Positions 2,665 through 30,726 of a stretch of 64,000 bases of DNA are shown here, one piece after another. The DNA comes from Bryobacterales bacterium. Its GTDB lineage: Bacteria; Acidobacteriota; Terriglobia; Bryobacterales; UBA6623. The stretch spans positions 386,841-450,840 of the forward strand of contig CBDFJA010000003.1 of assembly GCA_965248365.1 (NCBI GenBank), in the 5' to 3' direction. The position numbers were made by a program, and so were the translations under genes. How positions within the stretch are numbered: the stretch's first letter is position 1; each line of letters begins with the position of its first letter. Below the pieces are notes generated by a model, which was given only the letters and a program-made list of their open reading frames with translations, made no database searches and was not told the DNA's origin.

Positions 2665-5588
2665 TTCTTACCGATGCCCAACGCGAAGCGGGTGACAACG
2701 CGATGAGTTCTCACGGTCGTCATAAACGGGGCGGCGCCCGGACGATCCTCATGCTGGGCAGCCTGCTGCTGGGAACAGGATTCCTCTGCGCCCAACAGGA
2801 GTACGCTGAAGACTCGCTTCTCGGCGGCTTCGGCAGCTACGAGCGTGAAGAGTCGCCGAGGAAGATTTACGGCGTCACCGAGCCGGGTTCGGTCGGCAAT
2901 TCGCTGTTGCTGACGATCTCCAATCGTGACGAACGGGTTTCCATCGCCAGTGCGCGGGCGGAGTTGGTGAGTGATCCTTCCTCCGTCGCTAATTTGCAGT
3001 TCGATCCTCCGACGGTTTCCGACATCGAGCCGGGCGAGTCGAAGCAAATTAGGGTTCGATTTGATGTCGATGAGGATGCGCCGCTGGGCGAAAGCGAAAT
3101 GCTGCGCTTTCGCGTCTTTGACGAGGAGGGCCGATCCTCTTCGTGGTTGGACACTTCCTTGTGGCTGACCTACGTATCGAACGCTCCCCTGGTTTTGCGG
3201 CTGGTCAAGATCGAAGCATACTCGCCGCGATCGTCGGACGGTTGCCAGCTGGACTACCGGGAGGGGCAGGCCGGCCTTGTCACGCTGTGCGAGAAGGAAG
3301 GATCCCGGGTGGCGGCAAGTGTGGCGCTCGGCCGGTTTCCGTATGAGATCGTCTTCGGCGAGCCCTTCGAGTTCGAGGCCGAGGTGAAATACCAGGTCCG
3401 CTACTCGCCCGGGCACCCCTGCCACGAGGCTTCCGGAGGGGCGGAGCAATTGGAAGACTGTCGAGAACTTTTCACACGCACCACTTGGAATTTCCACAGA
3501 CATTGGAATTTGGGCTATATCACAATGGACGGCAAGGGGCCGGAAACGGTTCGGACAACGCTGCGCTTCGTGCCGGAGCGATGCATGGTCCCTTCCAATT
3601 TAGGGGCCGTCGGTTGCGACGACTTCGGCGGCCGTTGGTCCCAAGACCCGGCCGGAGAGAAGCGGCGAAATGACGAGCAGTGGCGCTCAATCTCCTACAA
3701 GATCGAGACCGAGCCCGCGGGCATGGATTGGGCGTATCAGACGCCGGAGAAGCTCACCATATACTGGCCGTCCCAATATAAGGCTGACAACGGCGGTTTC
3801 GTCCGTTTGTTCTCCTCTCACAGGCACGCCGACGGCACGCCCATCGTAAGCTTCTCTTTGCTGAGAGGTCTCGAGGAGGTCCCTAGCGAACACTCCGTCG
3901 CTTTCGCGCTCGACGTCTCCGCGGGCGGTTCCCGAGCGGAGCTAAAGCTTCATTACCGGCCGGTGCGCCGCGGGGACTCTTCTCTCTCCTCGGTGCAGCC
4001 CTTCCGCCATCCTGATCTCGGCCCGGAGCTGAGCGGCGATGAGGCTGACAGCTTGTCCGACGCGGGCGAGGAGAGCGACGATCGAGCGGCCTCGGAATTG
4101 AGCGACGAGGGAAGGACCGCCGGGCAGGCGCCGCTCCGAAGACCGGTTCCCTCGGTGGAGGACACGGGTGTTACCGAGGCGGAAAGGACCCTTCGAGAGG
4201 AGGGTTTCGCTCCCCGGGCGCGGACCGCGTCCCCGGGGCCGACGCCTGATCGGACGGGCAAGGTGCAGTCACAGTCTCCTGGGGCCGTTGGGGAAAGGCC
4301 GGCCGGCACGGAAGTGGGGAAACAGGTATACGGTCCCGCCGAACCGGAATCGGCGCGCGCCAAAAGCCCGCCGAAGCCTTCCTCGGAGGAACTCTGCGAA
4401 ACCTACCGCGGCATGGCGCGGATGGCGACCAACGAGCAGGTGCGGGCTTCGGCCCTGCAACTACTCCGGGGGATGGGGTGTTCGGCGCCCCCCGCGTCGA
4501 TTTCCCCACCAGCGCAAGAAACCGGGGCTTTCCCTCCTCCCGACGATCCTCGCTTTGACCCGCCGGCCCGCAAGCAAGACCGGACGCCGGACCCCACCGC
4601 GAGGCAGCGGTCACGGACCGGGACGGTTCCCCGCGTCGTCGCCCTAGAGGCAAAGCAAGCCAAAGACGCAATCGAAGCGCAGGGATACACCATGGAGGTG
4701 GAGGTGGGGTCGCCGGCCAGGCGCGAGACAGACGCCTACCGGGTCTCTCGGCAGCAGCCCGCGGCGGGTTCTCTCCTGGCTAGAGGCGGAGCGGTCAAGA
4801 TAACGATCTGGGACCGCTGGAGCGCTCCTCAGAAGCGGGTCCCCGACGTCGTTGGGAGTCGCGCGGCCGACGCCAAGGCCACCCTCGAAAGACAAGGTTT
4901 CATCGCCTCGGTCGAAGTGGGAGCGCCCGCGGAAAGTGAGGGAGAAGCGTACACCGTTGCCCGGCAAACACCCGGGTCGGGCACGCCAGCCCCAGCAGGC
5001 GCCCAGGTGGCGTTGCGCGTTCACGGCCCTTACCAGCCGAAGCCCGAACCGGAGAGGTCCAAGTCCGATCCGACCCCAGCCCCGACGGCTGCGAGCAGCG
5101 ATGCGGACCAGCTACTGGTGCCGAGTACACTCCTTGGGCGGAAACTTTACGACGATCTGTGGGATGCCAAGCCCGGGCCTGCCGGGAAACTCATCCTCTC
5201 TCGGCCCGAGCCGGATTATTTATGGCGGGAACCAACTTCAACCTGTATAAGCTATAAGAAGGCTCTCGGTCTTGCCCCAGCCTGCGATTTCGTCCACGGG
5301 ATCGAGCTGAATTACCAGGAGAAGCCGGTTTTCTTCCTGGTTTGGATGGAGCCGGGAGACAAGGCTCGCGGCAAACGGGACGGTTACAACTGGAAGTCGT
5401 ACAACGCTGCGCATAACTGTGGCGGCGGCTTGCAAAAAGATCCAAAAATAGCCCTTTATGTGCTCCCCAGCAAAACCAAGAAGGCCGCTGTGCTGATGGA
5501 CATGAAGGGCCGGGATCCGAGTCCCGTGCTGCCAGCGGCGCGGGATCTCCTCGCGCAAGTCGAGCAGTTTTCGGTGCCTTGCCGCTAG
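2661..5588 (+). CDS. Large secreted protein of unknown function with two PASTA-like repeats and a Pro/Ser-rich disordered linker
   Basis: 975-aa ORF. Signal-like segment ARTILMLGSLLLGTGFLCAQQ (alternative start ATG 2703). Two ~65-aa repeats start VPRVVALEAKQAKDAIEAQGY... and VPDVVGSRAADAKATLERQGF..., resembling PASTA domains. Confidence 0.7.
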   Translation: MILTDAQREAGDNAMSSHGRHKRGGARTILMLGSLLLGTGFLCAQQEYAEDSLLGGFGSYEREESPRKIYGVTEPGSVGNSLLLTISNRDERVSIASARAELVSDPSSVANLQFDPPTVSDIEPGESKQIRVRFDVDEDAPLGESEMLRFRVFDEEGRSSSWLDTSLWLTYVSNAPLVLRLVKIEAYSPRSSDGCQLDYREGQAGLVTLCEKEGSRVAASVALGRFPYEIVFGEPFEFEAEVKYQVRYSPGHPCHEASGGAEQLEDCRELFTRTTWNFHRHWNLGYITMDGKGPETVRTTLRFVPERCMVPSNLGAVGCDDFGGRWSQDPAGEKRRNDEQWRSISYKIETEPAGMDWAYQTPEKLTIYWPSQYKADNGGFVRLFSSHRHADGTPIVSFSLLRGLEEVPSEHSVAFALDVSAGGSRAELKLHYRPVRRGDSSLSSVQPFRHPDLGPELSGDEADSLSDAGEESDDRAASELSDEGRTAGQAPLRRPVPSVEDTGVTEAERTLREEGFAPRARTASPGPTPDRTGKVQSQSPGAVGERPAGTEVGKQVYGPAEPESARAKSPPKPSSEELCETYRGMARMATNEQVRASALQLLRGMGCSAPPASISPPAQETGAFPPPDDPRFDPPARKQDRTPDPTARQRSRTGTVPRVVALEAKQAKDAIEAQGYTMEVEVGSPARRETDAYRVSRQQPAAGSLLARGGAVKITIWDRWSAPQKRVPDVVGSRAADAKATLERQGFIASVEVGAPAESEGEAYTVARQTPGSGTPAPAGAQVALRVHGPYQPKPEPERSKSDPTPAPTAASSDADQLLVPSTLLGRKLYDDLWDAKPGPAGKLILSRPEPDYLWREPTSTCISYKKALGLAPACDFVHGIELNYQEKPVFFLVWMEPGDKARGKRDGYNWKSYNAAHNCGGGLQKDPKIALYVLPSKTKKAAVLMDMKGRDPSPVLPAARDLLAQVEQFSVPCR

Positions 5589-5805
5589 GCCGCTTTTCTC
5601 ATCAGGTGGCGAGCCCGCTTTTCTCACCACGTAGCCGGCAGGAGCGGAAGCAAACGCCCGCCGTCAGGGATGTAGGGGTGCGATTTATCGCGCCCGCTTG
5701 CGGCATACTGTACGCTGGGCGACGTAGGGAAACTGTCGCCGCGAGCCGTGGCCACCGGGCCTTTCGCCGAATCCACTGCGGCCGCCGGCGAGAAATCCGG
5801 GCTAG
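5585..5805. repeat. MITE-like intergenic element, copy M1, with CTAG-tipped terminal inverted repeats
   Basis: Left ends are CTAGGCCGCTTTTCTCATCAGG and CGAGCCCGCTTTTCTCACCAC. The right end is GGCGAGAAATCCGGGCTAG. Internal hairpin GGGGTGCGATTTATCGCGCCC. Aligns over its length with the reverse complement of 8033..8238. Confidence 0.75.
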
Positions 5806-5809
5806 CGTT

Positions 5810-7433
5810 GTGTTGCGATTCACCGTTTCGGTTATAGCTATCGCCTCTTGCGTGTCCCTCCTGGCCGCGCGGGAACCCGTTGAGATACGAGGCCGGGTGG
5901 CCGGTGTTTCAGGTGGTGAAGTCTCCCTGCGGGTGGACGGCGATCTGTTGCCCCGGGCAGGAGATCAGGTCCGGATCCTGACCGAAGTTCCGGGTCTTGG
6001 CGAGACACCCCTCGCAGGCACCTGGAAAGTTTCCAGCGTGACGCAGACCGAGGTGCTTATCGAGCGTACCGAGGGCGAGGGCGTCCCGGAAACCGGCAAC
6101 GCAGTCCGGATCATCTCGCCGAACCCCCAGAGGAAGTCGGACGCCCCCCGAACGCTGAGCGCCGAAGATCGGGGAGGGGGGATCCTAGCCCGGGTCATCG
6201 AGGCTCGGAGGGGCCGAGCGGCTGGACTCCGTCGAAACTCTGCGTTGGGTGCAAACCGTCGACGAGCAGACCGAAAGCGGCGCCGAAAGCTACAAGAGAA
6301 CTTTCTTGGCCGCCTACCCGGATCAGTTCCGTCTCGACGCTCACCGGCCGTCGAAAGCGGAATCGACGGCGATTGGAAGGACCGCGGGATTCCATCAACG
6401 CAACACGGGAACGGTCCCCATTGAAGAGGAGCAGTTGCCCAGCGCCAGGCGTCCTTTTCAGCTCAGCGTCTTCACGCTGCTGCGTCTCCGGAGGGAACTT
6501 GGCGTCAGAGTCTCTTTCGCGGGGGAGAGAGACGATTCCGGGCGGAAGCAGCTCGACGTGACTGTCGGCCCGGATGAGCTGAAGCTGTTCGTCAACAGCG
6601 CCCATCGCGTCACCGGCCGCGAGCTAACGCTTAAACAGCCGGACGGGTCGACCAAGCGGCTGATGAGCCTTTTTCCCGATTTCCGGGAAGTCGACGGCTT
6701 GATCTTGCCGTTTCACGCGCGGTTTGAGGTGGATGGGGAATTGGCTGCCGAGGTTCGTACCGAGTCGGCCACCTTCAACCAGCCAATCGATCCGTCCGAG
6801 TTCGAGCCCACCCAGCAGCAGAAATCGCAGATCGCGTGGAGCATACTGACCGGGAAGGGCGTTCATCGAAACTTTGTCAAGGCAGGCAGGTTATTTGAAG
6901 AGCTTTGCCAGGAAGGGCATCAGCGCTCGTGCGAAAGAGCGGGATTCTACGAAGCCTTCCTTGATGCAGGTCGGCGCACAGCGCCGCGCGAAAGAGTCAA
7001 GGTTGGAGACTTCCAGGACTTCATCGGCCTCTCCCGTGGCCAGAAGAAGGGGCGCGTTCTCAAGCTGTTCGGTGAGCCAAGCGGGCGCAGGCCCCAGACT
7101 CGCGATGGCGAGATTTGGGCGTACAACCTTGGAGATGCGAGGTCGGACTGGCTTACGGTCTTTTTCGATGGTAAGAACCGAATCCGGATCATCATGTTGG
7201 ACAAGCAGCACTCCATCGGCCAGTTGGAGCGCAGGGGGATCACCGAACCCAAGCTAACGATCGGCTATTTGCAGACCGAGGTGAGGGGGATGATCGGTCC
7301 ACCTGAGCGTATTTTCGGGAAGCACGGCCCTTTCTACAAATGGCGGCACCCCCGCGTCAGTTTGACAATAAGCTTTCCCAACCGAACCTTCGGCCTTTGC
7401 AACGGGATGACAATTATGTGGTACTACAACTGA
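5810..7433 (+). CDS. Secreted protein with a LolA-like middle region; apparent frame break near 6200 (ORFs 5810-6424 and 6189-7433)
   Basis: GTG at 5810 gives the signal-like VLRFTVSVIAIASCVSLLAA. The first frame degenerates into an Arg-rich tail after ...ILARVIEA, while the next frame reads LGGAERLDSVETLRWV... through to 7433. The break lies at a G-run. Confidence 0.45.
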
Positions 7434-7588
7434 GCGCTCCGGCAAAGGTGCAGTCCTTCTTGCCGGGTGGCTGGGCCTACGGGTTGCTGTGCCACACAAC
7501 AAGCGACCACTCCACGGCTCTTAGCGGGACTTTTCCGGTCCTCGGTCTTGGCGTGTGGCGAGAAGGCGGGCGAAGGTCTTCAAAAAGC

Positions 7589-7665
7589 TGGTCGGGCCGC
7601 CGAGATTTGAACTCGGGACCTCTTCCACCCCAAGGAAGCGCGCTACCAGGCTGCGCCACGGCCCG
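7589..7665 (-). tRNA. tRNA-Pro (anticodon GGG), CCA encoded
   Basis: 77-nt cloverleaf read by hand. Acceptor CGGGCCG/CGGCCCG, D arm GCGC-AGCCTGGTA-GCGC, anticodon arm CTTCC-TTGGGGT-GGAAG with G37, T arm CCGAG-TTCAAAT-CTCGG, discriminator A plus CCA. Confidence 0.9.
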
Positions 7666-7787
7666 ACCCAACGACATTGTAGCTTACGCGACCAGGCGGG
7701 CGTAGCCGGGGTCGCGGTCCCGTTTTCACCGAATTTATGTGTCGGCAAAGGCTTGACTCCTGCGTGGAAGACCGTTTAAAACGCTCC

Positions 7788-8035
7788 GGTCGGCTCACGA
7801 CCACGTCGGTTCTTCCCTGATGAGACGCGCCCCGTCAAGCACGGTGTGAATTGTCCGTAGGGGCGAGACTCATCGCGCCGGTCGCGGGCGACTTGTCGTC
7901 CTGACGGCCTCCCAAGCCCTTCGCCTCGCCACGCATTGAGTTGCCCCGAACTTCCTACGCCCCGTAGCGTGAAAATACGGCCCGTAACATACACTTGGGT
8001 TGCAGACAGATCCCGTTTCCAAAGTAGAATCCGGG
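7788..8035. repeat. MITE-like element, copy M2a (diverged; left end uncertain)
   Basis: Contains the GTAGGGGCGAGACTCATCGCGCC hairpin. The right terminus GTAGAATCCGGGCTA resembles the M1 right end. Confidence 0.45.
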
Positions 8036-8238
8036 CTAACCCGCGTTTCTCACCACGGCCGCGGTGGATGAGGCGAAGGGCGCGGCGGTCATCGCTCGCG
8101 GCGACAGTTTGTGTGCCACTCCCTGCGTACAACCATGTCGGCAAGCGCGCGCGATGAATCGCGCCCCTACATCCCTGACGGCGGGCATTTGCTTGCACTT
8201 CTACCTGCAGCTGGCGAGAAAAGCGGGCTAAACGGGTT
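8033..8238. repeat. MITE-like element, copy M2b (opposite orientation to M1)
   Basis: Ends are CTAACCCGCGTTTCTCACCAC and GGCGAGAAAAGCGGGCTAA. Hairpin GCGCGCGATGAATCGCGCCCCTAC. Its reverse complement aligns with 5610..5805 along the whole length. Confidence 0.75.
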
Positions 8239-8256
8239 TGAGAGGAATCCTACTAA

Positions 8257-8688
8257 CTACAAGGAGCGCTGGGCGAGCTCGCCCAGCAACGGCAAGGTGT
8301 AGCGTTCGCCTTTGCTGGTCTTGAGCAGCATGAAGATCCAAACGACCAGCAGAGCCAACTCGAGGAGCTTATCAATGGGAATGTAGGGCCCCGGCATGAC
8401 GCGCAGCCATAGTCCGATCGTCCAGTGCACGAGCAGCCAAGCGACAAACAGGTAAAGACCCTGGTAGGCGTGGAAGCGAACGTCCTTAGCTTGTCGAAAT
8501 TTGTCGGCGGCGAGCACGTACAGGCTAGCGATCCAGCCGAGCCAGGGGATGTAGCAGAGAATCGACGCCGCGCGCGGACTGATGGCCGGCCCGCCGCGAG
8601 AGGCTGCCGTGGGTTGGGATCGGCCGCACTGGCGGCAGTATGCGTCCGTATCGAGGACTTGCCGGCCGCATGCTGTGCAGTAGGGCAC
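8257..8688 (-). CDS. Zinc-ribbon plus multi-pass membrane protein (DUF4870-like)
   Basis: 143 aa. N-terminal CTACGRQVLDTDAYCRQCG (two CxxC motifs), followed by about three hydrophobic helices. Confidence 0.65.
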   Translation of the reverse strand: MPYCTACGRQVLDTDAYCRQCGRSQPTAASRGGPAISPRAASILCYIPWLGWIASLYVLAADKFRQAKDVRFHAYQGLYLFVAWLLVHWTIGLWLRVMPGPYIPIDKLLELALLVVWIFMLLKTSKGERYTLPLLGELAQRSL

Positions 8689-8879
8689 GAGTCTGCTCTC
8701 CTAGTGGGGATACGAAGCCCCGCGGCCGCTTGTTCCAAGAGACGCTCCCATGGAATGAAAACCGCAAGGCGCAAACAAGACGAAAACTAGACCGCCGCTT
8801 CAATTGAGCTTGAAGCAAGCGGGCCATGAGGTCAAGGCGGCACCCTCCGGTTACCTCCGTCGGTTTCCGGGGAGTACGT

Positions 8880-9045
8880 GTCAACTCACAAGTAAACAGC
8901 CCACGCTGGGCACACAAGTGGGCGATTCATCGCGCCCGCTTGCCGGCGTACTCTACGCGGAACGATATGCACAGACTGTTGCCGCGAGCCTTGGCCGCCG
9001 GGCCTTCCGCCCCAATCGGTATGACAGCAGAGAAAGCCGGCGGTC
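8880..9045. repeat. Degenerate or partial copy of the MITE-like element (M3)
   Basis: Shares GTGGGCGATTCATCGCGCCCGCTTGCCGGC...ACTGTTGCCGCGAGCCTTGGCCGCCGGGCCTTCCGCC with M1. The termini are eroded. Confidence 0.5.
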
Positions 9046-9049
9046 CCGC

Positions 9050-10999
9050 TTACACGAGCGGCGCGAGGCTCAGAAAGCGGCGAAACTCCTCGACGTCGCG
9101 GGTGCGTCCGGGAAACTCGGCCGCGATGCTCTCGTCCGGGTGGACGATGGCGTAGTAGGGGATGGCGACCGTGCCGAAGCGGTCCAGTTGCAGCTTTTGA
9201 TTGGCCAAAGAAGCGTCGTCGACACCGTCAGTGTAGAGTTCAAGCAACACCAGACCGTCTAAGGCTCCGGCGATCTCTGGTCGGGTGAACATGTTGGCCT
9301 TCATCCAGTGGCAGTTCGTGCAGGCGTAGCCGGTGAAGCTTACCAGCACGGCCTTCCCTTGCTCCCGGGCGATCTGGAGTGCTGCTTGGTAGTCATTCTT
9401 GAGCCACGTGGTCTCGGAACCGCCGGACCCCAATCCCGCCAACGTCAGGCCCGAGTACTCCGCGGGCGGCACGTAGGCATCAATTTCGCCCAGTCGGGAT
9501 CCGAACATGCCCGGAATCAGGCTGACAGCCAAGACGAGAAACAGGCCGCCGATAGCCAAGCGCCCGATGCCGATCGACGAGTCATCGTCCGCGGCCAGCC
9601 GCACCAACCCCAGCAGATACATCCCGGCAAGCGCCAGCAGAACAATCCACAGAGCCAAAAAACGCTCACGGGTCAAGATGTGCCACTGATACATCTGGTC
9701 GACGTTGCTGAGGTACTTCACCGCCACCGCCAAAATGACGAACCCCATCGTCGCCTTGGTGCGGGCCAGCCAACCCCCGCTCTTAGGCAGCCGCGACAGG
9801 TAGGCGGGGAACAGGGCCAAGAAAAAGAACGGTAGCGCCAGCCCGGTTGAAAACATCAGCATCCCAAAGATCGGCCAACTCACATCTCCCTGAATCGACC
9901 CGGCCAGTAACGCACCAACGAAAGGTCCCGTACAGGCAAACGAGGCCAGTGCAAACACCAGTCCCATCACCAGCGTGCCCACAGTCCCGCCGCGGCCTGC
10001 CACGCGGTCGAGCTTGGTCAGCAGACCGCTTGGGACGCTGATCTCGAAAGCGCCCAACAGACTGGCCGCAAAGGCGACGAACACCAGCGCAATGAACAAG
10101 TTGATCCAGACATTCGAGCCCAGTCGGAGAAGCCCGAAAGGTCCCAGCGCCAGCGAAACAATCGTCCCCAAACCGGTGAAAAGCACAACCACGCCGACAC
10201 AGAATATCGTTGCCTGGACGAAGGAAGGTTTCTTCGAACCTGCTTGCGTGCTGACAAAGTACGACATGGTGATCGGAATCATCGGGAATACACAGGGCGT
10301 GAAGATCGCCAGCAGGCCGAACCCGAATGCAATCCCGGCGAACGGAATGATCCCCTCTGACTGTGGCGTGGGAAGCCGAGTCAGACGAGCCGCCGCGGCC
10401 GCGGTTTGCGCTGACGGGGTTAAAGCAGCCGCCGCGGTTGCTTCCACGTAGCCGTCGGCAATGGCAGGCGCCGCCGCCGTGGCCGCCGGATCTATTTTCA
10501 GTGCAGCCGTTGCCGTCTTCCTGACGGGCGGCAGACAGAGCCGGTCGTCGCAGACTTGATAGCGAACCCTTGCCTCGAGCTCCGGTGAGCCGAGCGAGGC
10601 ATCCTCCGCCAGCAGAATGTCGAATTGAAAGACGGCTTCGTCTTCGTAAGTCTCGGTCTCGAGTTGGAAGTTCTCGTCGATCCGGCGGTTGGGTGGGGGC
10701 TGAAACAGCTTCCAGCTCTCAACCGAGGGCGACTCGGCCATTTCGATCTTCGTTGGGATCGGTCCTCCCGCCGGCGTGGTCGGCGAGTAGAGGTGCCAGC
10801 CGGGTTCGATTTCCGCCTTTAGCAGACCGACAGCTCGCCGGCCGGGACGCGCCGATTGGGGATCAAACGCCAGCGACCACTGGACAGGGTCGTATTTAGG
10901 CTGGCGGGAAGCCAACTGGGCCTGCCCCGAAACATGAACTATGGCAAGCAGCAGGGAGAGCACTGCGAGTTTCCGGGAGATTGCCATTGGCGGCTTCAT
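9050..10999 (-). CDS. dsbD: Thiol:disulfide interchange protein DsbD-like (cytochrome c biogenesis transmembrane core plus C-terminal thioredoxin domain)
   Basis: 649 aa. Signal peptide, a multi-TM core with the CVFPMIPIT motif, and a C-terminal thioredoxin fold with GYACTNCHWM (CxxC). Confidence 0.85.
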   Translation of the reverse strand: MKPPMAISRKLAVLSLLLAIVHVSGQAQLASRQPKYDPVQWSLAFDPQSARPGRRAVGLLKAEIEPGWHLYSPTTPAGGPIPTKIEMAESPSVESWKLFQPPPNRRIDENFQLETETYEDEAVFQFDILLAEDASLGSPELEARVRYQVCDDRLCLPPVRKTATAALKIDPAATAAAPAIADGYVEATAAAALTPSAQTAAAAARLTRLPTPQSEGIIPFAGIAFGFGLLAIFTPCVFPMIPITMSYFVSTQAGSKKPSFVQATIFCVGVVVLFTGLGTIVSLALGPFGLLRLGSNVWINLFIALVFVAFAASLLGAFEISVPSGLLTKLDRVAGRGGTVGTLVMGLVFALASFACTGPFVGALLAGSIQGDVSWPIFGMLMFSTGLALPFFFLALFPAYLSRLPKSGGWLARTKATMGFVILAVAVKYLSNVDQMYQWHILTRERFLALWIVLLALAGMYLLGLVRLAADDDSSIGIGRLAIGGLFLVLAVSLIPGMFGSRLGEIDAYVPPAEYSGLTLAGLGSGGSETTWLKNDYQAALQIAREQGKAVLVSFTGYACTNCHWMKANMFTRPEIAGALDGLVLLELYTDGVDDASLANQKLQLDRFGTVAIPYYAIVHPDESIAAEFPGRTRDVEEFRRFLSLAPLV

Positions 11000-11125
11000 T
11001 TCGTTCGATGCCGGGGTTGAGCCAGGGGTTGCAAGCTCCGAATGCTTCCAGCGGGTCGAACCGGCCGAGTCGTGTTGCGGCCTATTTGAAGTTTCGGGGC
11101 CCGCGAAGGAAAAGTTATCTTTAAT

Positions 11126-12244
11126 TTACTCGCTGCCCTTCGTCCTCAACATCGCCAGGCCAATCCGACCGTTGAGATTCTCGTCCGGAGAGGGCCGGTT
11201 TCCGCCCCCGAACCAGACCAAAAGATCGCCGCCGCGTCTCCACACGCTTGGATCACAAACAACGTGCAAGTTCCACGCTTGCGAACCCTCAAGCAAGGGC
11301 AGGGTGGGCAACTTCTTCCAGTCTACACCGTTCACCGACTCGGCCCAGCCGATGCGCCGGTCTTCGTTTGCGTCCCGGCCGGTGTAGAGCATCAGATACC
11401 GATCCGCGGCGCAAAAGACCGCCGGTTCGCCGAGACCCCGCTCATCAAAGCTGCCGGGCGGGCCGGTGTCGAGGATCGGGTTGACGTGCGATTTCTGCCA
11501 GTGAACACCATCGGTCGAGCGCGCTACCCCGAGGCGCTGAATCCCGAACCGGTTCTGGCCTAAGTAGTACATGGTGTAGGTTCCCTGGCGGCGGACCACG
11601 TAGGGATCGCCGACAGCGGTTTCATCCCACGATCTTGAAGGGCCGGGCGCCAGGACCGCCCTACCGTGTTTCGACCAGCGTGTCGCATCGACGGAGTCCG
11701 CCAGTCCAATGCTGGTCCCGCCGCGCGGTCCCGCCTGATACCAATAGAGAAAGTGGCCGCCGTCATGACCGAGAGAACCGTTGGCCGCAATGTAGCCGCC
11801 CTCCCAGGTCGCCGGGTCGGGCGAAATTACGGGTCCCGTTCCCTGTTTGTCCCAACTTGCGCCCTCGGCCAATGTCGCCAGTCCGGTGTGCCAGGTCTTG
11901 CCGTCAAATCCCGAATAGAGATTGTAAAACGTTTTGCCCACCCTGACGACGCTGGGGTTGAGAACATCCACGGAATCCCAGGTTCCGCTTGGGCCGGGGC
12001 TCAGGACCGGCTCGGGTCGCACCTCCCATTGCGTTTCGGAACCGAGAGGGGCGCTGCTCTCCTCGCAGCCGGGCACCACGAACCGAGCCTGTTTGGGCCG
12101 AAACGCGGGGCCGCAGGCAATCGCGAGCAGCGTGCAGAGAACCGCGAGGAACTTAGATCCGCGGATGGAGTTCGGAGTCACTTGGTCCTCAGAGTGGTAA
12201 CACCGGCCGCCCTTATCGCCGCCTCCGGCTTTGGTAGGTGACAA
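11126..12244 (-). CDS. Secreted glycoside-hydrolase-like five-bladed beta-propeller protein (GH43/32/130-type)
   Basis: 372 aa. Lipobox-like LLAIAC. Recurrent blade motifs WDSVDVLNPSVV, WDETAVGDPYVV and FDERGLGEPAVF. Confidence 0.6.
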   Translation of the reverse strand: MSPTKAGGGDKGGRCYHSEDQVTPNSIRGSKFLAVLCTLLAIACGPAFRPKQARFVVPGCEESSAPLGSETQWEVRPEPVLSPGPSGTWDSVDVLNPSVVRVGKTFYNLYSGFDGKTWHTGLATLAEGASWDKQGTGPVISPDPATWEGGYIAANGSLGHDGGHFLYWYQAGPRGGTSIGLADSVDATRWSKHGRAVLAPGPSRSWDETAVGDPYVVRRQGTYTMYYLGQNRFGIQRLGVARSTDGVHWQKSHVNPILDTGPPGSFDERGLGEPAVFCAADRYLMLYTGRDANEDRRIGWAESVNGVDWKKLPTLPLLEGSQAWNLHVVCDPSVWRRGGDLLVWFGGGNRPSPDENLNGRIGLAMLRTKGSE

Positions 12245-12328
12245 CGCAGCCCTGTGCTACGCTGACGGCTTGCAGGGCGGCGAACCTCCGGTTTGCGCCT
12301 ACAGATTCTCGCAGAAAGTCGTCTCCCG

Positions 12329-13306
12329 ATGAAAGCCTGGCAAGTTACTGCGTTCGGCGAACCCGAGGAGATGACGCTGCGGGACGTGCCTCTGCCCGCG
12401 CCGGGCCCGGGGCAGGTTCTCATTCGCAACCGGGCCGCGGGGCTGAACTTCTTCGACATTCTGCAGATCCAAGGGAAATACCAGTCCAAGCCCTCGTTTC
12501 CGTTTACGGTGGGCCGGGAAGTCGCCGGCCAGGTCGAGGCGGTGGGCGAAGGCGCGGGGAAGTTTTCCGTCGGCGAAGCGGTGCTCGCCTTTCCCGACGG
12601 AGGCGGCTATGCGGAATACTCTCTCGCCGCGGCCGATCGTACGTTCCCCAAACCCGACGACATGGGCTTCCCGGCAGCGGCGGGGATGGCCATTACCTAT
12701 CAAACAAGCTACTTTGCCCTCACACATCGAGCCAGGTTGCAGGAAGCCGAGTGGCTGCTGGTGCACGCCGGGGCCAGTGGCGTAGGCGTGGCGGCGCTTC
12801 AGCTTGGCAAGGCTCTTGGCGCGCGAACTATCGCCACCGCGGGCAGCGATGAAAAACTAGCCTTTTGCCGCACCCAAGGGGCCGACCACGCGATCGGATA
12901 CACGCAGGCAAGCTGGGTCGATCAGGTGAAGGAAATCACCTCGGGCCGCGGCGCGGATGTGATCTACGATCCCGTCGGCGGCGACGTCTTCGATCTCTCC
13001 ACGAAATGCATCGCGCCCGAAGGACGCCTGCTCGTAGTCGGCTTCGCCGGGGGGCGCATCCCCTCGATCGCCGCCAATCGCGTTCTGCTCAAAAATATGT
13101 CCGTCGTGGGCGTGTTTTGGGGCCGCCATGTGGACGAACACCCGGGCTATCTGGCGGAAGCCCAGCAATCGCTGATGGATTTCCACCGGCAAGGCAAGAT
13201 CCGGCCTTCCGTGTCCGTCACCTATCCGCTGTCGCAAGCCCCGGCGGCGTTAGCCGACTTGGCTCGGCGCAAGATCGTCGGCAAAGCGGTGCTGGTGATC
13301 GGCTGA
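12329..13306 (+). CDS. NADPH:quinone oxidoreductase / zinc-type alcohol dehydrogenase family (MDR superfamily)
   Basis: MKAWQVTAFGEPEEMTL start. GASGVGVAALQLGKALGA nucleotide-binding motif. The ORF opens at 12293, but ATG 12329 fits the family N-terminus. Confidence 0.85.
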   Translation: MKAWQVTAFGEPEEMTLRDVPLPAPGPGQVLIRNRAAGLNFFDILQIQGKYQSKPSFPFTVGREVAGQVEAVGEGAGKFSVGEAVLAFPDGGGYAEYSLAAADRTFPKPDDMGFPAAAGMAITYQTSYFALTHRARLQEAEWLLVHAGASGVGVAALQLGKALGARTIATAGSDEKLAFCRTQGADHAIGYTQASWVDQVKEITSGRGADVIYDPVGGDVFDLSTKCIAPEGRLLVVGFAGGRIPSIAANRVLLKNMSVVGVFWGRHVDEHPGYLAEAQQSLMDFHRQGKIRPSVSVTYPLSQAPAALADLARRKIVGKAVLVIG

Positions 13307-13338
13307 GAGTATCCGTCCGGACTCCCGTGCATGAATTG

Positions 13339-13539
13339 TGAGCCGGCATTGCTCGCCGGCCGACGATCCAGGCGCGCAAGCGGTCCGCCGTTACCTCGTT
13401 GCGCCTGCTCGCCGTGCTCAACGTAGGGTTCAAGTACGCCCGCATGATTCAAGAAATGCGGCGCCGAGCGGCGCGCGCTTGGTACTGGCAGTCCTCTCAC
13501 GCACTTCGCCTCGCGACCTGGTGAGAAAAGCGGGCTAGG
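13339..13539. repeat. MITE-like element, copy M4 (right terminus hit by IS481)
   Basis: Right end GGTGAGAAAAGCGGGCTAG at 13520-13538. Left end-like TGAGCCGGCATTGCTCGCC. Confidence 0.55.
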
Positions 13540-14565
13540 TGTGATCTTTCAACAGGTTGTTCATTCGGTCCCGGACCAGGGAAGCTGGAGTTGTCGAATA
13601 ACCACGACCCTGGAGAGACCGCATGAACATCCATCAGAATGCCCGATTGACGCCCAAAGGCCGAGCCCTTTTGGTTCGATGCATCCTCGCTGGAGAGACG
13701 CCTCGGGCCGCCGCGGCGGCCCGAGACGTCTCAGAACGCACCGCCCGCCGTTGGCTGGCCCGCTACCGCGGCGAAGGCGAAGCCGGTCTCTACGATCGCT
13801 CTTCGCGCCCCCGGCATAGCCCGCGCCGCACCCCGCAAGCCGTCGTTGACCGCGTCCTCGCCCTGCGCCGACAACGTTGGACGGGCCGCCGCATCACCCA
13901 AACCCTGCGGCTATCCCCGGCCACCGTCAGCCGCCTCCTCGGTCGCGCCGGACTCAACCGTCTCCGCGATCTCGAACCCGCTCCCCCCGTTCGCCGCTAC
14001 GAACATCACCGTCCCGGCGATCTACTGCGTCTCGACATCAAAAAGCTCGGCCGCTTCCAGCACGCCGGTCACCGCGTTACCGGCGATAAGACCCGACGCT
14101 CCCGCGCCGCCGGCTGGGAGTTCGTCCACGTCGCCGTCGACGACCATTCCCGCATCGCCTTCTCCCAGATCCTGCCCGATGAGCGCAGCCTTTCCGCTGC
14201 CCAGTTCCTTCTCCTCGCCCACGCCTACTATGGCTCGCTTGGCATCCGCATCCGACGCCTGCTCACCGACAATGGCTCCTGGTACCGCTCCCGCCACTTC
14301 CGTCGTACTTGCCGCCGCCTCGGCATCCGCCACCGCTTCACCCGCCCCTACACCCCTCGCACCAACGGCAAGGCCGAGCGCTTCATCCAAACCGCCCTCC
14401 GCGAATGGGCCTATGCCCGCTCCTACTGCTCCTCCCTCCAACGCGCCAACCATCTGCTCCCCTGGCTCCACGACTACAATTGGCATCGCCCCCACGCCAG
14501 CCTCGGCTATCATCCCCCTATCAGCCGACTCCCTCCTCCCCGGAACAACCTGTTGAGGCTCCACA
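13540..14565 (+). mobile_element. IS481-family insertion sequence, copy 1 (1026 bp), 6-bp TSD GCTAGG
   Basis: Inverted repeats TGTGATCTTTCAACAGGTTGTTC and TGTGGAGCCTCAACAGGTTGTTC (reverse complement). GCTAGG occurs at 13534-13539 and 14566-14571. Confidence 0.92.
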
Positions 14566-14570
14566 GCTAG
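13623..14570 (+). CDS. IS481-family DDE transposase
   Basis: 315 aa. N-terminal HTH, then DDE motifs LDIKKLGRF, LLTDNGSWY and NGKAERFIQT. The last codon and the TAG stop lie in the duplicated target. Confidence 0.92.
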   Translation: MNIHQNARLTPKGRALLVRCILAGETPRAAAAARDVSERTARRWLARYRGEGEAGLYDRSSRPRHSPRRTPQAVVDRVLALRRQRWTGRRITQTLRLSPATVSRLLGRAGLNRLRDLEPAPPVRRYEHHRPGDLLRLDIKKLGRFQHAGHRVTGDKTRRSRAAGWEFVHVAVDDHSRIAFSQILPDERSLSAAQFLLLAHAYYGSLGIRIRRLLTDNGSWYRSRHFRRTCRRLGIRHRFTRPYTPRTNGKAERFIQTALREWAYARSYCSSLQRANHLLPWLHDYNWHRPHASLGYHPPISRLPPPRNNLLRLHS

Positions 14571-14972
14571 GCCAACGTCAGCGTGATATCGTCGAGGGAG
14601 TTGCGGAGCGCCGACCAGCCCATGCCTTGACTTGTGGTCTTCTTGGTCACCATGACCACGGCGGCGCTCTTCTCGCGGATGATCGTCATGAAGTGATAGA
14701 CCTTCGGCGAAGAGATGAACATTTCCTCGAAAGAATCCTTGAGGTCCACGTCCCGCTTGCTTGGAGAGCAACTCCTCAACGCGGCGGACGTTCTTGCCGC
14801 AAAACATTTCGACGGCCGCGGCAGCCACGGCGTCCAAGTAAGATTGCGTAAAGTGCGCGACCGTGTGGTGAACTCCGATTAACATCCCGGTGTTGAGGTC
14901 GACAACCCCGACGGCCAAGCAATCGTCGACTTTATCCACCAGTTCTCTGCATAGATCTGCGGTGTTTGCCAT
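14567..14972 (-). pseudogene. Small roadblock/LC7-like (MglB-like) protein, frame-broken near 14757
   Basis: The N-terminal 72 codons (MANTADLCRELVDKVDDCLAVGVVDLNTGMLIGVHH...ELLSKQ) continue sensibly only in ORF 14567..14779 (RDVDLKDSFEEMFISSPKVYHF...LTLA*). One nucleotide separates the two frames. Confidence 0.5.
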
Positions 14973-15379
14973 TTCAGCTCCTTAAGTTGCTTGCTCTTCT
15001 TTCTGTTAGTTTTGGCGCGCAATCCCTCTAGGGTCGCGTGGAGGGGACCGTCTCTCCCTTCAGCAATTCGGATTCCGTCCCGCACCCGTACAAAAAGAAG
15101 TGTTTTGATGACAGCAAGGCAATATCGTGGGTGAGGCGACCCCGTGAGTGGGGGTTTTGCCCCACCGATTGAAGGATTGAGGAGGGCGAGAGCGTCCCAA
15201 GGACTCGCAGCGCTACAAAATCGCGCCTTTGTCCCTCCGGACTCGGGGGCCGGATCGCGCCGAGACTCCCGGTCCACCGCTAGCGGGCCATAGTGTGCGA
15301 ACTATCTTCGGCGCCCTTGTCCGCTGGAGCTCGGCGGCGACTGCGCTAAAATAATGGTTCTAAGAGGATCGAGGTCTAT

Positions 15380-16660
15380 TTGCCGGCGACAGAGAGCTGT
15401 AAGCGCGAACTGGAGATCAGCGTACCTTGGGAGGAGGTCGAGCAGGAAACGGGCCGCATCGTCAAGGCCCTCCGAGGCGGCGCGAAGATTCCCGGGTTCC
15501 GGCCGGGCAAGGCGCCTGACAGCATTGTCCGCTCGCGCTATCAAAAGGAAATCCGGCAGGAGATCATCGACAAACTGGTCCCTAGCTTCTTTTGGAAGCA
15601 GGCGCAACAACAGAACCTGCGAGTCGTCGGCTCTCCCCAGGTGGGTGACCTTCACCTGGAGAACGGCGAGGCGATGCGGTTCCACGCTGAATTTGAAGTC
15701 TATCCCGACTTCGAGCTGGGCGACTACCGTCGTATCGAGGTCCCTTTTCGTGAACCGGAGGTGAGCGAGGAAGAGGTCGCCCAGGAGTTGGAACAGCTCC
15801 GCGAGCGGCACGCCGGCTTTCGCAATCTCGACCCTCGCCCGCTTGCTGACGGCGACATCGCCGTTTTGTCGCTGAAGGGAACTTCCGAAGACGACACGCC
15901 GCCTATCGAACAAGAGGAGACCACCGTCACGATCGGCAGTGAAGAGACCTTACCGGAGTTCAACGAGCGTTTGCGCGGGAAGAGTCCGGGCGACGAGGCG
16001 GATTTCGAAGTGCGCTATCCCGAGGATTTTTCCAACCGCTCGCTGGCCGGCAAGTCGGTCTCTTTCCATGTGGAGGTCAAGGGGGTAAGGGAAAAGGATT
16101 TGCCCGAGCTTAACGACGACTTTGCCGCCGATCTCGGCGACTTCCGCACGCTGGAGGAAGTCCGCCGTCACCTGCATGAGTTAATCGAAAACCAGCGCAG
16201 GCGTCAGGCTACCGAGGCCGCCCAAGAGGCGCTGATCAATGAATTGATCAAAAGGCACGATTTCCCGGTTCCCGAAGAGTTGGTTGATCGGCAGATCGCC
16301 AGCCGCCTCGAACGTCAACTGCGTTCCCTCAAGCAACAGGGCGTTGACGTGTCGAAGCTTGATTGGGATTGGGACAAGGTGCGCGACGAGGAGCGGGAAC
16401 GCGCTTCCCGCGATGTCAAGGCCAGCCTGCTGTTGGAGAGAATCGCAAAAGCGGAAAACATCAGCGCCGGTTCGGAGGAGATTGACGAGCAGGTCCAGCG
16501 CTATGCGGAACAGACGCGGCAATCCCCCGCGGCCGCCCGCAAGAAGCTGGCCGACGACGGCGCCTTGGACCGCATGCAAGTGCAAATGAGCAACAACAAG
16601 ACACTGAGCTTTCTCTTGGATGAAGCCGAGAAAGTCGATCATGAGGTTGAGGCCACATAA
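15380..16660 (+). CDS. tig: Trigger factor
   Basis: 426 aa with a TTG start. Has the ribosome-binding signature IPGFRPGKAP and the typical acidic C-terminal domain. It is followed by clpP. Confidence 0.92.
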   Translation: MPATESCKRELEISVPWEEVEQETGRIVKALRGGAKIPGFRPGKAPDSIVRSRYQKEIRQEIIDKLVPSFFWKQAQQQNLRVVGSPQVGDLHLENGEAMRFHAEFEVYPDFELGDYRRIEVPFREPEVSEEEVAQELEQLRERHAGFRNLDPRPLADGDIAVLSLKGTSEDDTPPIEQEETTVTIGSEETLPEFNERLRGKSPGDEADFEVRYPEDFSNRSLAGKSVSFHVEVKGVREKDLPELNDDFAADLGDFRTLEEVRRHLHELIENQRRRQATEAAQEALINELIKRHDFPVPEELVDRQIASRLERQLRSLKQQGVDVSKLDWDWDKVRDEERERASRDVKASLLLERIAKAENISAGSEEIDEQVQRYAEQTRQSPAAARKKLADDGALDRMQVQMSNNKTLSFLLDEAEKVDHEVEAT

Positions 16661-16735
16661 CGGTTGGGACTTTCCGTTATTGTCCGGGTTCGCGCACGCG
16701 CTCGCCGGCCAAGCTAGTCAGCACAAGGAACGCAT

Positions 16736-17353
16736 ATGTCCAGGATGATTGAACCAAACGCCGGTCTGGTTCCCATGGTCGTGGAGCAGACCAGTCGCGG
16801 AGAGCGCGCGTACGATATTTACTCCCGCTTGCTGCGGGACAACATTATTTTTGTCGGCTTCCCCATTGACGACAACGCCGCCAATCTGATCACCGCGCAG
16901 TTGCTGTTTCTTGAAGCCGAGAATCCGGAGCGCGATATTTGGCTTTACATCAACTCGCCCGGGGGATCGATCACCGCCGGGATGGCCATCTACGACACGA
17001 TGCAGTTCGTGCGCCCCGACATCACGACGGTTTGCGTCGGCCAGGCCGCGTCGATGGCCGCCGTGCTGATGGCGGCGGGCGCCAAGGACAAGCGATACGG
17101 ACTTCCCAATTCCCGTTTCCTGCTCCATCAGCCCTCGATCTCCGGGCTGGCCGGACAGGCGACCGACATCGACATCCAAGCGCGCGAAATCCTGCGCATG
17201 CGCGAAAAGATCAACCAGATTCTCGCCCAGCATAGCGGGCAAAAGCCCGAAACCATTAACAAAGACGTCGAGCGCGATTTCATTCTCGACGCCGAACAGG
17301 CCAAAGACTACGGCCTAATCGACGAGATTATTTTCAAGAAGGAACAGGAGTAG
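16736..17353 (+). CDS. clpP: ATP-dependent Clp protease proteolytic subunit
   Basis: 205 aa. Contains [19 protein letters not shown], the active-site context [10 protein letters not shown], and LLHQP. Confidence 0.95.
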
Positions 17354-17609
17354 CGCTCCGCGGGGCGCGCCGCTTGCTCGTCCCCTTTTGGCGTGCGTGT
17401 GCGCCGACTTCCCCTACGACTCGAGAACCCGTGCTGTGTTCGGCTCGCGGCGGGGCCCGCGCCCTGACGGGCACGGCTCTGTCCGGTTAACGCCGCGGGC
17501 CGTCGCCGCAAGAATGACGCCAGTAGGGACAAGCCCTCTTGCTTGTCCGGCCGTTTGTCGTTGCATGCAGCTCGGCGACCCGCGCTGTATCCGAGAAATG
17601 CGGGCTAGT
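17354..17609. repeat. Intergenic repeat M5 (variant family; right terminus CCGAGAAATGCGGGCTAG hit by IS481)
   Basis: Terminus at 17591-17608. Left end-like GCGCCGCTTGCTCGTCC. Contains the 35-nt core GGGCCCGCGCCCTGACGGGCACGGCTCTGTCCGGT, shared with 33904-33938 and 26928-26958. Confidence 0.6.
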
Positions 17610-18552
17610 TGTGGAGCCTCAACAGGTTGTTCCGGGGAGGAGGGAGTCGGCTGATAGGGGGATTATAGCCGAGGCTGGCGTGGGGGCGATGCCAATTGTA
17701 GTCGTGGAGCCAGGGGAGCAGATGGTTGGCGCGTTGGAGGGAGGAGCAGTAGGAGCGGGCATAGGCCCATTCGCGGAGGGCGGTTTGGATGAAGCGCTCG
17801 GCCTTGCCGTTGGTGCGAGGGGTGTAGGGGCGGGTGAAGCGGTGGCGGATGCCGAGGCGGCGGCAAGTACGACGGAAGTGGCGGGAGCGGTACCAGGAGC
17901 CATTGTCGGTGAGCAGGCGTCGGATGCGGATGCCAAGCGAGCCATAGTAGGCGTGGGCGAGGAGAAGGAACTGGGCAGCGGAAAGGCTGCGCTCATCGGG
18001 CAGGATCTGGGAGAAGGCGATGCGGGAATGGTCGTCGACGGCGACGTGGACGAACTCCCAGCCGGCGGCGCGGGAGCGTCGGGTCTTATCGCCGGTAACG
18101 CGGTGACCGGCGTGCTGGAAGCGGCCGAGCTTTTTGATGTCGAGATGCAGTAGATCGCCGGGACGGTGATGTTCGTAGCGGCGAACGGGGGGAGCGGGTT
18201 CGAGATCGCGGAGACGGTTGAGTCCGGCGCGACCGAGGAGGCGGCTGACGGTGGCCGGGGATAGCCGCAGGGTTTGGGCGATGCGGCGGCCCGTCCAACG
18301 TTGTCGGCGCAGGGCGAGGACGCGGTCAACGACGGCTTGCGGGGTGCGGCGCGGGCTATGCCGGGGACGCGAAGAGCGATCGTAGAGACCGGCTTCGCCT
18401 TCGCCGCGGTAGCGGGCCAGCCAACGGCGGGCGGTGCGTTCTGAGACGTCTCGGGCCGCCGCGGCGGCCCGAGGCGTCTCTCCAGCGAGGATGCATCGAA
18501 CCAAAAGGGCTCGGCCTTTGGGCGTCAATCGGGCATTCTGATGGATGTTCAT
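17605..18552 (-). CDS. IS481-family DDE transposase
   Basis: 315 aa, differing from copy 1 at a few residues (A/T, H/R, N/H). Ends ...LHN* because the flanking base differs. Confidence 0.92.
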   Translation of the reverse strand: MNIHQNARLTPKGRALLVRCILAGETPRAAAAARDVSERTARRWLARYRGEGEAGLYDRSSRPRHSPRRTPQAVVDRVLALRRQRWTGRRIAQTLRLSPATVSRLLGRAGLNRLRDLEPAPPVRRYEHHRPGDLLHLDIKKLGRFQHAGHRVTGDKTRRSRAAGWEFVHVAVDDHSRIAFSQILPDERSLSAAQFLLLAHAYYGSLGIRIRRLLTDNGSWYRSRHFRRTCRRLGIRHRFTRPYTPRTNGKAERFIQTALREWAYARSYCSSLQRANHLLPWLHDYNWHRPHASLGYNPPISRLPPPRNNLLRLHN

Positions 18553-18635
18553 GCGGTCTCTCCAGGGTCGTGGTTATTCGACAACTCCAGCTTCCCTGGT
18601 CCGGGACCGAATGAACAACCTGTTGAAAGATCACA
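17610..18635 (-). mobile_element. IS481-family insertion sequence, copy 2 (1026 bp), 6-bp TSD GCTAGT
   Basis: Same inverted repeats as copy 1. GCTAGT occurs at 17604-17609 and 18636-18641. Confidence 0.92.
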
Positions 18636-18636
18636 G

Positions 18637-19752
18637 CTAGTCCGACTTCGAATCGCGCTCTGCCTTGAAAGCCGCCAGCAGTCCTTCGAAGTCCGCCGTC
18701 GTCATCTTCACGGACGCGCGGATCAGCCTTTCTTCCGCCGCTACATCGATCGCGTCGAACAGCGTCATCGCCTGAGGATATTTTCCGCTCAGCGTCAGCC
18801 GGCCGAACGCCACCATCCCCCGGCTGGCATCGGCCAGCGTCTTGGCGTCCTCCGGGGTAGCGCAAACACCCTCGGTCTGAACATCGATTCCGTCCGTCAG
18901 ATCCGCCGCCAGACTCGATCTCTCCATGGAGCGGAAGATGCCGAAGGCGGGGATGTCGATCCCGCTCGGCAAGCTGCCGACCTGGCTCTCCCAAAGCTCT
19001 CCGGTGTTTAAGGAAACGGACCAGAGCTGGTTTGACGAGTTGAGCGTCTCCGCGCTTTCGAGCAACGGCTTGTTGTCGAGGAGACTCGGGCCGCCATCCA
19101 TTTTGCGGTCGATCGCGGCCATCACCGCGGATTTGTTTCCAGCGGCTGCTATCTGCTCATTAAAGAACACCAAGGAGAGGCCGTTCTCCAGTTGCCTAAA
19201 AAAATCTGATCCCGGAGCCTCGGGCGTTGAGCCGCTCGTTTCCGGCGTAGGCGGATGATACACGGTGACGCCACGGTACTCTTCGACGTCGCCGTGATCC
19301 TCGAACCACTTCCGAACGGTGTCTGTGAGGCTGAAGCGGCTTCTGGCAACGACAAGAGACTGTGCCCCGAGCGACTCACCCTCGTCATCGGGTCGATCGA
19401 TCCACCAGGCCGCCAGGACTTGATGGAGATCGCGCCGCGGGTCCAAGCCGATCTCGGCGGCCATGCGGTCGAAATCTTGATGAGCTTGCTCGTTCTCTCG
19501 ACTCTCTTCCCACAACCGGTAAACGGGCGTGGCTTTCAGCCGCTTCATGTCCAGGCCGCCCACGCCTGAATCCTCAGACGGCAGTAAGGCGGCGAGTTCG
19601 CGGTCCAGCCCCGAAGCCTGGGTCTCGTCCTCCGTCTGACAGGAGGAGAAAGCGAGAACCGCGGCAACGAGCACCGCCAGCAGACATGCCGCGGACCGAG
19701 TCGTGAGTTGTTTCTTGCCAAACCCCTTGCAGGGAAAAACATTTGTCAACAT
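18637..19752 (-). CDS. Hypothetical lipoprotein
   Basis: The ORF opens at 19911, but ATG 19752 gives MLTNVF...AVLAFSSCQ (lipobox-like) and lies 4 nt after the upstream gene's stop. Its TAG stop lies within the CTAG duplicated by IS481 copy 2. Confidence 0.6.
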   Translation of the reverse strand: MLTNVFPCKGFGKKQLTTRSAACLLAVLVAAVLAFSSCQTEDETQASGLDRELAALLPSEDSGVGGLDMKRLKATPVYRLWEESRENEQAHQDFDRMAAEIGLDPRRDLHQVLAAWWIDRPDDEGESLGAQSLVVARSRFSLTDTVRKWFEDHGDVEEYRGVTVYHPPTPETSGSTPEAPGSDFFRQLENGLSLVFFNEQIAAAGNKSAVMAAIDRKMDGGPSLLDNKPLLESAETLNSSNQLWSVSLNTGELWESQVGSLPSGIDIPAFGIFRSMERSSLAADLTDGIDVQTEGVCATPEDAKTLADASRGMVAFGRLTLSGKYPQAMTLFDAIDVAAEERLIRASVKMTTADFEGLLAAFKAERDSKSD

Positions 19753-26950: not shown

Positions 26951-26964
26951 GCGGGCCCGCCGGC

Positions 26965-30622: not shown

Positions 30623-30726
30623 CCCTCAAGTCTCCTTCACGGAACGCGCGCACCCGCTGAAACCATCAAACTATGGGACACGCGAACCGCCCGCTTGCCA
30701 ACACCGCAAGAAGAACGCGGCTCTCT

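Follow-up and report, generated by a model that had tools for sequence, protein, structure and literature searches.

Short intergenic repeats tipped with CTAG recur along a 64,000-nucleotide stretch of a Bryobacterales bacterium genome (assembly GCA_965248365.1, contig CBDFJA010000003.1, positions 386,841 to 450,840; hereafter the window, in whose coordinates all positions are given unless another locus is named), and they raise the question of what these repeats are, which enzyme moved them and whether they serve the host. [quoted passage not shown] We propose, with considerable confidence, that the copies are non-autonomous MITEs of the IS1380 family of insertion sequences (ISs), that they use YTAR as their target and that those of the window are old relics.

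The terminus CTAGCCCGCTTTTCTCAC gave eight matches in the window at three mismatches or fewer, against 0.03 expected from shuffles, with none of 100 shuffles reaching eight, and all eight fall within 5.5-31 kb. A dispersed repeat family with shared termini is thus real. The end-to-end alignment reported earlier was also reproduced: BLAST and nhmmer found 5610-5805 to be homologous over its whole length to the reverse complement of 8036-8231, with 79% identity over 196 nt, and identified 8890-9039 as a relative of both that lacks the ends. Membership in a single family, however, holds for the ends and fails for the interiors, as only 5614-5801, 8040-8227 and 8890-9039 are homologous throughout; the remaining copies in the window have mainly their termini in common, with weak or no interior similarity. 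Since it is mainly the ends that are shared, we read the window family as several subfamilies united by their ends. Termini are carried by 13339-13538, 17591-17608 and 30727-30921. Of two variant forms that had been proposed, 17354-17609 stands, through its termini at 17591-17608, whereas 33790-34063 is without termini and shares just an internal module of ~70 nt with 17435-17503 and 26929-26962.

Terminal inverted repeats (TIRs) form inverted pairs at 5589/5614-5801, 8040-8227, 13343-13534 and 30731-30917. The true TIR is 14-15 bp long, CCCGC(A/T)TTTCTCAC(C), and starts at CCCGC; outside it, perfect target duplications were found in the window at 5589-5801 (CTAG/CTAG) and 8040-8227 (CTAA/CTAA). 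The positions proposed for the copies were a few bases off, and the limits differ when drawn from TIR to TIR. In all, the window contains six MITEs with TIRs, a single relic that lacks them and one additional copy of an end (Table 1). At 187-235 bp and with no transposase gene, the elements have the small size of MITEs, and none of the open reading frames (ORFs) that cross them has support, in agreement with the earlier view that they lack coding capacity.

To which transposase the ends belong became apparent outside the window. A motif scan with TAGCCCGCWTTTCTC over one genome per species returned at least 114 loci from many phyla, for a search space of 596 Gb in which we estimate roughly 2,000 single matches by chance. 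Among the matches listed, to which the following counts also apply, most loci have an inverted partner end within 70-430 bp, and a relaxed partner search delimited 62 TIR-bounded elements, 53 of them MITE-sized (71-405 bp, mode about 177 bp) and 6 of 1698-1766 bp. The great majority are flanked by CTAG, TTAG or CTAA, and 36 of the 62 have the same tetranucleotide at either side; one flank is biased by the search pattern, and the unbiased flank shows the same YTAR preference. Elements of 1.7 kb with the same ends and with CTAG or TTAG duplications occur in the loci L075, L054, L001, L036, L064, L087 and L116 and in plasmid pKF715A, each with one gene for a transposase of 455-475 aa. On the NCBIfam model NF033539 'IS1380 family transposase' (cut-off 180 bits), those of L075 and L054 reach 389 and 414 bits, and the transposases of the 1.7-kb elements match Pfam PF13701 with E values of 1e-151 to 1e-162. 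In L075 the element is bounded by GGCTAG followed by CCCGCATTTCTCACC at one end and by GGTGAGAAATGCGGG followed by CTAGAC at the other, and L054 is the same; the Pseudomonas putida plasmid pKF715A has an identical structure (CTAG, then CCCGCATTTCTCAC, with CTAG again at the far end), and in a copy on a Rhizobium plasmid the duplication is TTAG. A related end, CGCGGATTTCTCAC, was seen in the type element IS1380A, which is flanked by a TCGA duplication. The inverted repeat of the full-length elements begins at CCCGC, and the CTAG, CTAA or TTAG tips of the MITEs are a 4-bp target-site duplication, host DNA outside the inverted repeat. The proposal of a MITE-like repeat inserting at (C)TAG is upheld and can be narrowed down: the ends are the TIRs of IS1380-family ISs, of which full-length copies in other genomes show the identical ends and a duplicated CTAG.

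Comparison with known members of the IS1380 family (IS1380A, IS1247, ISPme1, ISEcp1) shows both shared and differing features. The TIR CCCGC(A/T)TTTCTCAC is identical in the L075, L054 and pKF715A members, the end of IS1380A is a close variant, and a short flanking duplication is shared. In contrast, the window elements measure 187-235 bp, encode no transposase and have unrelated interiors, and they duplicate 4 bp and prefer YTAR, compared with 5 bp reported for IS1247 (1672 bp; inverted repeats 16/13; direct repeat 5; PMC3281130).

We suggest that an IS1380-family DDE transposase encoded elsewhere would bind these ends and mobilise the elements in trans, inserting them into a YTAR tetranucleotide, usually CTAG, and duplicating those 4 bp. 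Transposases of this family are known to work on surrogate ends and to carry neighbouring DNA along as 'transposable modules' (PMC9330008, PMC3281130), and such use of surrogate ends would be a plausible origin of MITEs with unrelated interiors. CTAG occurs 71 times in the window against 226 expected from base composition, an approximately three-fold under-representation, and TAG stop codons together with the flanks of existing MITEs could make up a noticeable share of the available sites. Scarcity of CTAG would explain the head-to-tail pairs that have one tetranucleotide between them, the stop codon kept within a duplication and the later arrival of IS481 elements. The abutting pair of the window, which had been described as sharing CTA at 8033-8037, does share bases, but these are CTAA at 8036-8039; a Hyphomicrobiaceae metagenome-assembled genome (MAG) has three head-to-tail IS1380-type MITEs of 262-265 bp with a single CTAG at each junction (L024, 3060-3859). 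The duplications, the distribution of the copies and these CTAG-sharing tandem arrays together suggest that the MITEs have moved.

Several observations weigh against IS1380-driven MITEs and have to be set beside this evidence. A tblastn search with two IS1380 transposases as queries found none within the window, which bears out the earlier statement that no parent element is present there. In a relative, the sole IS1380 gene seen in the neighbourhood (L118, ~1-1193, less than 10 kb from the orthologous dsbD-tig region) apparently has a different terminus, ...GTTGACCGGG (...GACCGGG), with CTAG next to it; the lineage may thus harbour a second IS1380 subgroup that also targets CTAG. BLAST detected no similarity between the MITE interiors and those of six full-length IS1380 elements, and the MITEs are therefore not simple deletion derivatives. 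Most copies in the window have imperfect duplications. Finally, no MITE in the window and the related loci provided a clean pair of filled and empty sites: flank-joining BLAST over the window and five related loci returned filled sites only, and between frdD and mutY, as between adh and tig, the intergenic regions had undergone too much rearrangement or divergence for a clean empty site. A metagenome scan with the 24 nt that end at the stop codon of the PASTA-domain gene had no match, and one made for a parent with the internal motif of subfamily 1 returned one short contig, which carries another MITE copy. As for the other transposase genes of the window, its 1026-bp IS was rejected as the parent, being of the IS481 family with unrelated ends (TGTGATC.../TGTGGAG...), and so was the remaining one, which is of the IS630 family.

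The degenerate state of most copies, together with ends that match full-length IS1380, would also be expected if each copy were what is left in situ of its own full-length IS1380 insertion after loss of the interior, and had never moved as a short element. A short interior at the same length, 188 bp or ~177 bp, nevertheless comes back at different loci and in different genomes, and shared interiors were seen at several window loci and, at non-corresponding places, in L025, at L118 16171-16358 and at L119 12031-12374 and 17183-17374; the MITE interiors are unlike those of the ISs, and short elements outnumber full-length ones by 53 to 6. We consider such remnants to have scarcely any chance of being the explanation.

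How old the insertions are was addressed with syntenic loci obtained from relatives through the tig-clpP neighbourhood (among them L118, L119 and L120). The trigger factor of the window has matches of 53-55% identity in Bryobacterales and closer ones, of 85-94%, in further assemblies, and loci of Bryobacterales MAGs correspond to its MITE subfamilies and its tRNA region. These matches agree with a host most likely in or near the Bryobacterales. L119 and L120, which are 98% identical to window positions 7589-13539, carry 7785-8035, 8040-8227, 8890-9039 and 13343-13534 at the same positions, and the more distant L118 also carries the copy downstream of adh (13343-13534). Copies at the same sites in relatives indicate that these insertions predate the split, which fits their decayed ends, and the window copies are probably no longer mobile. 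Other copies, at L118 16171-16358 and ~18100-18282 and at L119 12031-12374 and 17183-17374, stand at non-corresponding places, indicating that the families have moved within the lineage. The copies could serve as a dating marker for Bryobacterales-like genomes. The spacer downstream of clpP differs in every genome examined and is therefore a hot spot. At this position L118 (12130-12690) has three tandem repeats of ~195 bp, each with a TIR-like CCCGCATTCTCGCC and a GTAGCGTAGGGC hairpin.

The position of the copies relative to genes was the basis for the suggested terminator-like role. Of the six loci, five are placed immediately 3' of a gene, as had been claimed for all copies, and the sixth, 30731-30917, lies between divergent gene starts; both orientations relative to the neighbouring genes occur. 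Several tips had been said to overlap a stop codon. This is correct for the 975-aa PASTA-domain gene, whose TAG is the sole stop codon truly within a tip and has been kept by the duplication, and incorrect for the roadblock-like and lipoprotein genes. The 'lipoprotein' ORF (29921-30730) was rejected as a real gene, as it is antisense to a radical-SAM/B12-binding gene and matches nothing in Pfam; the 'roadblock' ORF (7340-7705) also lacks a Pfam match, shares bases with a tRNA gene (7592-7665, minus strand) and stops 80 bp short of any element.

One of the copies connects the window to distant hosts and introduces the question of folding. In an all-against-all BLAST among the matches listed, 13343-13534 fell into a 20-member cluster of ~177-bp elements, whose hosts are Acidobacteriota (Bryobacterales, Vicinamibacterales, Thermoanaerobaculia), two gammaproteobacterial MAGs, one deltaproteobacterial MAG and one Planctomycetaceae MAG. 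The outer 14 bp of these elements are almost invariant, and the next ~16 bp are variable between lineages yet complementary. For 12 members, RNAalifold gave a consensus with a long terminal stem and a central hairpin, CGTACTG..CAAGTACG. Of the 38 predicted pairs, 20 show compensatory changes, also within the central hairpin, a count that is inflated by the kinship of the sequences. Covarying stems are typical of MITEs, and structural selection is a possibility only.

These folds could alternatively mark host regulatory RNA or DNA elements that selection has kept at the 3' ends of genes, the transposon-like ends being incidental. Such a role would agree with the five loci directly 3' of genes, with the persistence of copies at orthologous sites, with the compensatory changes and with the long hairpin folds, whose z-scores of -2.0 and -3.7 are only modest. 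Against it, a consensus scan of 5000-18000 gave 11 terminator-like sites where 13.7 were expected, and the GC-rich hairpin followed by a T-run of an intrinsic terminator is no consistent mark of the elements in that region; the consensus scan likewise showed no enrichment of promoter-like sites. Rfam at the gathering threshold reported one tRNA only, and at E values up to 5 no family within the elements. The presence of both orientations, the copy between divergent starts and the decay of ends and interiors among the window copies also argue against retention by selection, and covariation is expected of inverted-repeat transposons, in which both arms have to remain alike; the sequences compared are, moreover, related by descent. 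We regard a regulatory origin as improbable; the terminator-like role is not upheld, and no host function of the MITEs is indicated.

The sequence-only reading had further placed a GC hairpin preceded by GTAGGG at the centre of the elements. GTAGGG is indeed enriched, with 9 of its 40 occurrences in the window lying in elements compared with 1.1 expected, and a GC-rich hairpin is often next to it, but the combination is not shared by every copy. REPs have a GTAG head beside a hairpin, and one may therefore ask whether the unit is GTAG(GG) with its GC hairpin, spread as a REP/REPIN-like palindrome by a RAYT (Y1) transposase. REPs and REPINs are palindromes of 20-40 nt, single or paired, with neither IS TIRs nor a target duplication, whereas the units here are 187-235 bp long with 14-bp TIRs and 4-bp duplications identical to those of IS1380, and the hairpin motif is not common to all subfamilies. 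In full-length IS1380 elements, moreover, GTAGG stands directly within the transposase-proximal end and may belong to the IS. A RAYT-driven origin thus appears very improbable to us. In L001, L054, L064 and L087 GTAGG(G/A) was seen 2-9 nt inside the inverted repeat at that end, where a function as subterminal binding site or promoter element is conceivable; the central-hairpin motif was not found in the full-length IS1380 elements examined.

As MITEs, the elements are of an ordinary kind. Like Correia, RUP, ERIC, Nezha, Chunjie and MITEPye1 they are short and non-coding, with TIRs and flanking duplications, and, as is usual for classical bacterial MITEs, they are mostly intergenic, can form long hairpins and include size variants and truncated copies (PMC10969869, PMC3184786, PMC11578231). 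They differ in the partner IS family, MITEPye1 for instance being attributed to IS1182 (PMC11578231), and in that this group spans several phyla with nearly invariant ends. Identity with Chunjie is ruled out by the 9-bp duplications of the latter (PMC3184786), compared with 4 bp here. The assignment supplies a class of repeats that lacked annotation with a parent IS family and a target rule. The searchable literature, which did not cover ISfinder, gave no description of IS1380-linked MITEs or of the end sequences, and we provisionally take the MITE group to be undescribed. With YTAR and the 4-bp duplication as a rule, annotators could mask such elements and avoid false ORFs such as the spurious 'lipoprotein'.

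The ends of piggyBac transposons begin with CCC, as do the ends described here. The IS1380 transposases are the prokaryotic outgroup for piggyBac, whose target TTAA, a palindrome of 4 bp, is duplicated (PMC10813416), and the palindromic CTAG is duplicated here in the same manner. Hosts and transposase lengths differ, and excision through a hairpin intermediate without a scar is piggyBac chemistry, for which the IS1380 clade is a candidate only. It is tempting to speculate that one IS1380 clade drives a pan-bacterial MITE superfamily with selection on the folded structure and repeated horizontal spread; this extension we judge to be unlikely. Candidate reasons for structural selection would be a hairpin or single-strand transposition intermediate, possibly with scar-free excision at CTAG, or a role at the RNA level. 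If the wider group were confirmed, IS1380 would join the IS families known to spawn MITEs, and a piggyBac-related transposase whose 4-bp target is palindromic could be studied in a simple bacterial setting.

The MITE flanks have in turn received other elements. NCTAGN is the classical target of IS481, and the window contains three copies, 99% identical, of a 1026-bp IS that resembles IS481 of Bordetella in its transposase (NF033577, 316 bits) and in its 6-bp duplications, which fit NCTAGN. Two of them lie exactly in the CTAG beside a MITE end. Both sites are uninterrupted in L119, where the second reads ...GCGGGCTAGTCCGAC, and their emptiness in a 98%-identical locus shows these insertions to be recent. 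The IS481 copies are unlike the MITEs in that they are unrelated to the MITE ends and merely exploit adjoining CTAG sites; the MITE flanks helped to provide their insertion sites. Insertion hot spots are explained in this way, with rare CTAG sites being reused by IS1380-type MITEs and then by IS481. An exact-protein look-up of the window's ClpP and IS481 transposase found no record.

Table 1. MITEs, target duplications and IS481 copies of the window
Feature	Position	Strand	Remarks
Left target duplication CTAG	5585-5588		holds TAG (5586-5588), the stop codon of the PASTA-domain gene (975 aa)
Subfamily-1 MITE	5589-5801	+	outer limits flanked by perfect CTAG/CTAG; 188-bp core 5614-5801 with TIRs CCCGCTTTTCTCAC / reverse complement CCCGGATTTCTCGC; before the core, an extra 25-bp copy of the left end at 5589-5613, GCCGCTTTTCTCAT...
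Right target duplication CTAG	5802-5805		
Badly decayed element or elements	7785-8035		weak right end GTAGAATCCGGG, then CTAA; internal GTAGGGG-hairpin, resembles subfamily 1
Shared CTAA of abutting elements	8036-8039		left duplication copy of 8040-8227
Subfamily-1 MITE, 188 bp	8040-8227	-	inverted relative to 5614-5801, 79% identity; CTAA at 8036-8039 and 8228-8231
Eroded subfamily-1 copy	8890-9039	+	no recognisable TIRs; between the dsbD stop and the start of a zinc-ribbon gene
MITE, 192 bp, cross-phylum ~177-bp group	13343-13534	+	left TIR decayed, CCGGCATTGCTCGC; right TIR perfect; flanks TGAG / CTAG (13535-13538)
IS481-family IS, 1026 bp	13540-14565	+	315-aa transposase; duplication GCTAGG (13534-13539, 14566-14571)
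MITE, 235 bp	17370-17604	+	left TIR decayed, CCGCTTGCTCGTC; right TIR GAGAAATGCGGG, then CTAG (17605-17608); carries internal hairpin module 17435-17503
IS481-family IS, second copy	17610-18635	-	beside MITE 17370-17604; duplication GCTAGT (17604-17609, 18636-18641)
IS481-family IS, third copy	24409-25434	-	away from MITEs; duplication TCTAGC
MITE, 187 bp	30731-30917	+	left flank CTAG (30727-30730), right flank CAAA; between the starts of two divergent genes, for a radical-SAM protein and a PfkB kinase

The tRNA gene at 7592-7665 (minus strand) adjoins the MITE pair of the window, and the same tRNA was seen in another Bryobacterales MAG (L025, 6244-6644; 97% identity over 122 nt, including the upstream region), where a subfamily-1 MITE lies ~90 bp past it in the same orientation and no other synteny with the window was found. 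The two could be an ancient linked pair or the result of independent reuse of one site. On the other side of the tRNA, L119 (2046-3188) and L120 (2218-2718) have genes for a phage-type integrase and for DUF3987/DUF5906 proteins, probably an integrative element at the tRNA; the genes of the window differ there.

A second, unrelated family of short repeats comprises 33790-34105, 17435-17503, 26929-26962 and, in L119, 12160-12243 and 20212-20341. Its modules have the form GTGCCCATGG...TTTCGACGGAGCGG, with the hairpin core ACAGAGCCGTGCCCGTCAGGGCGCGGGCCC and without IS1380 ends, and it is embedded both in the MITE at 17370-17604 and in a 344-bp MITE of L119.

Two further observations concern the outer parts of the window. 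An IS630-family transposase gene is accompanied by two fragments of its 3' part, 276-300 bp long and 99-100% identical (321-620, 41329-41604 and 42118-42417; ORFs 346-1389 and 42143-43267, both on the minus strand); the fragments are inverted, with 514 bp of a glycosyltransferase gene between them, and one forms part of a fused ORF whose N-terminus is NucS_C-like. At 53351-57648, two large genes contain internal periodic repeats of ~150-375 bp (direct-repeat families D3-D5), which look like FG-GAP/VCBS-type units.

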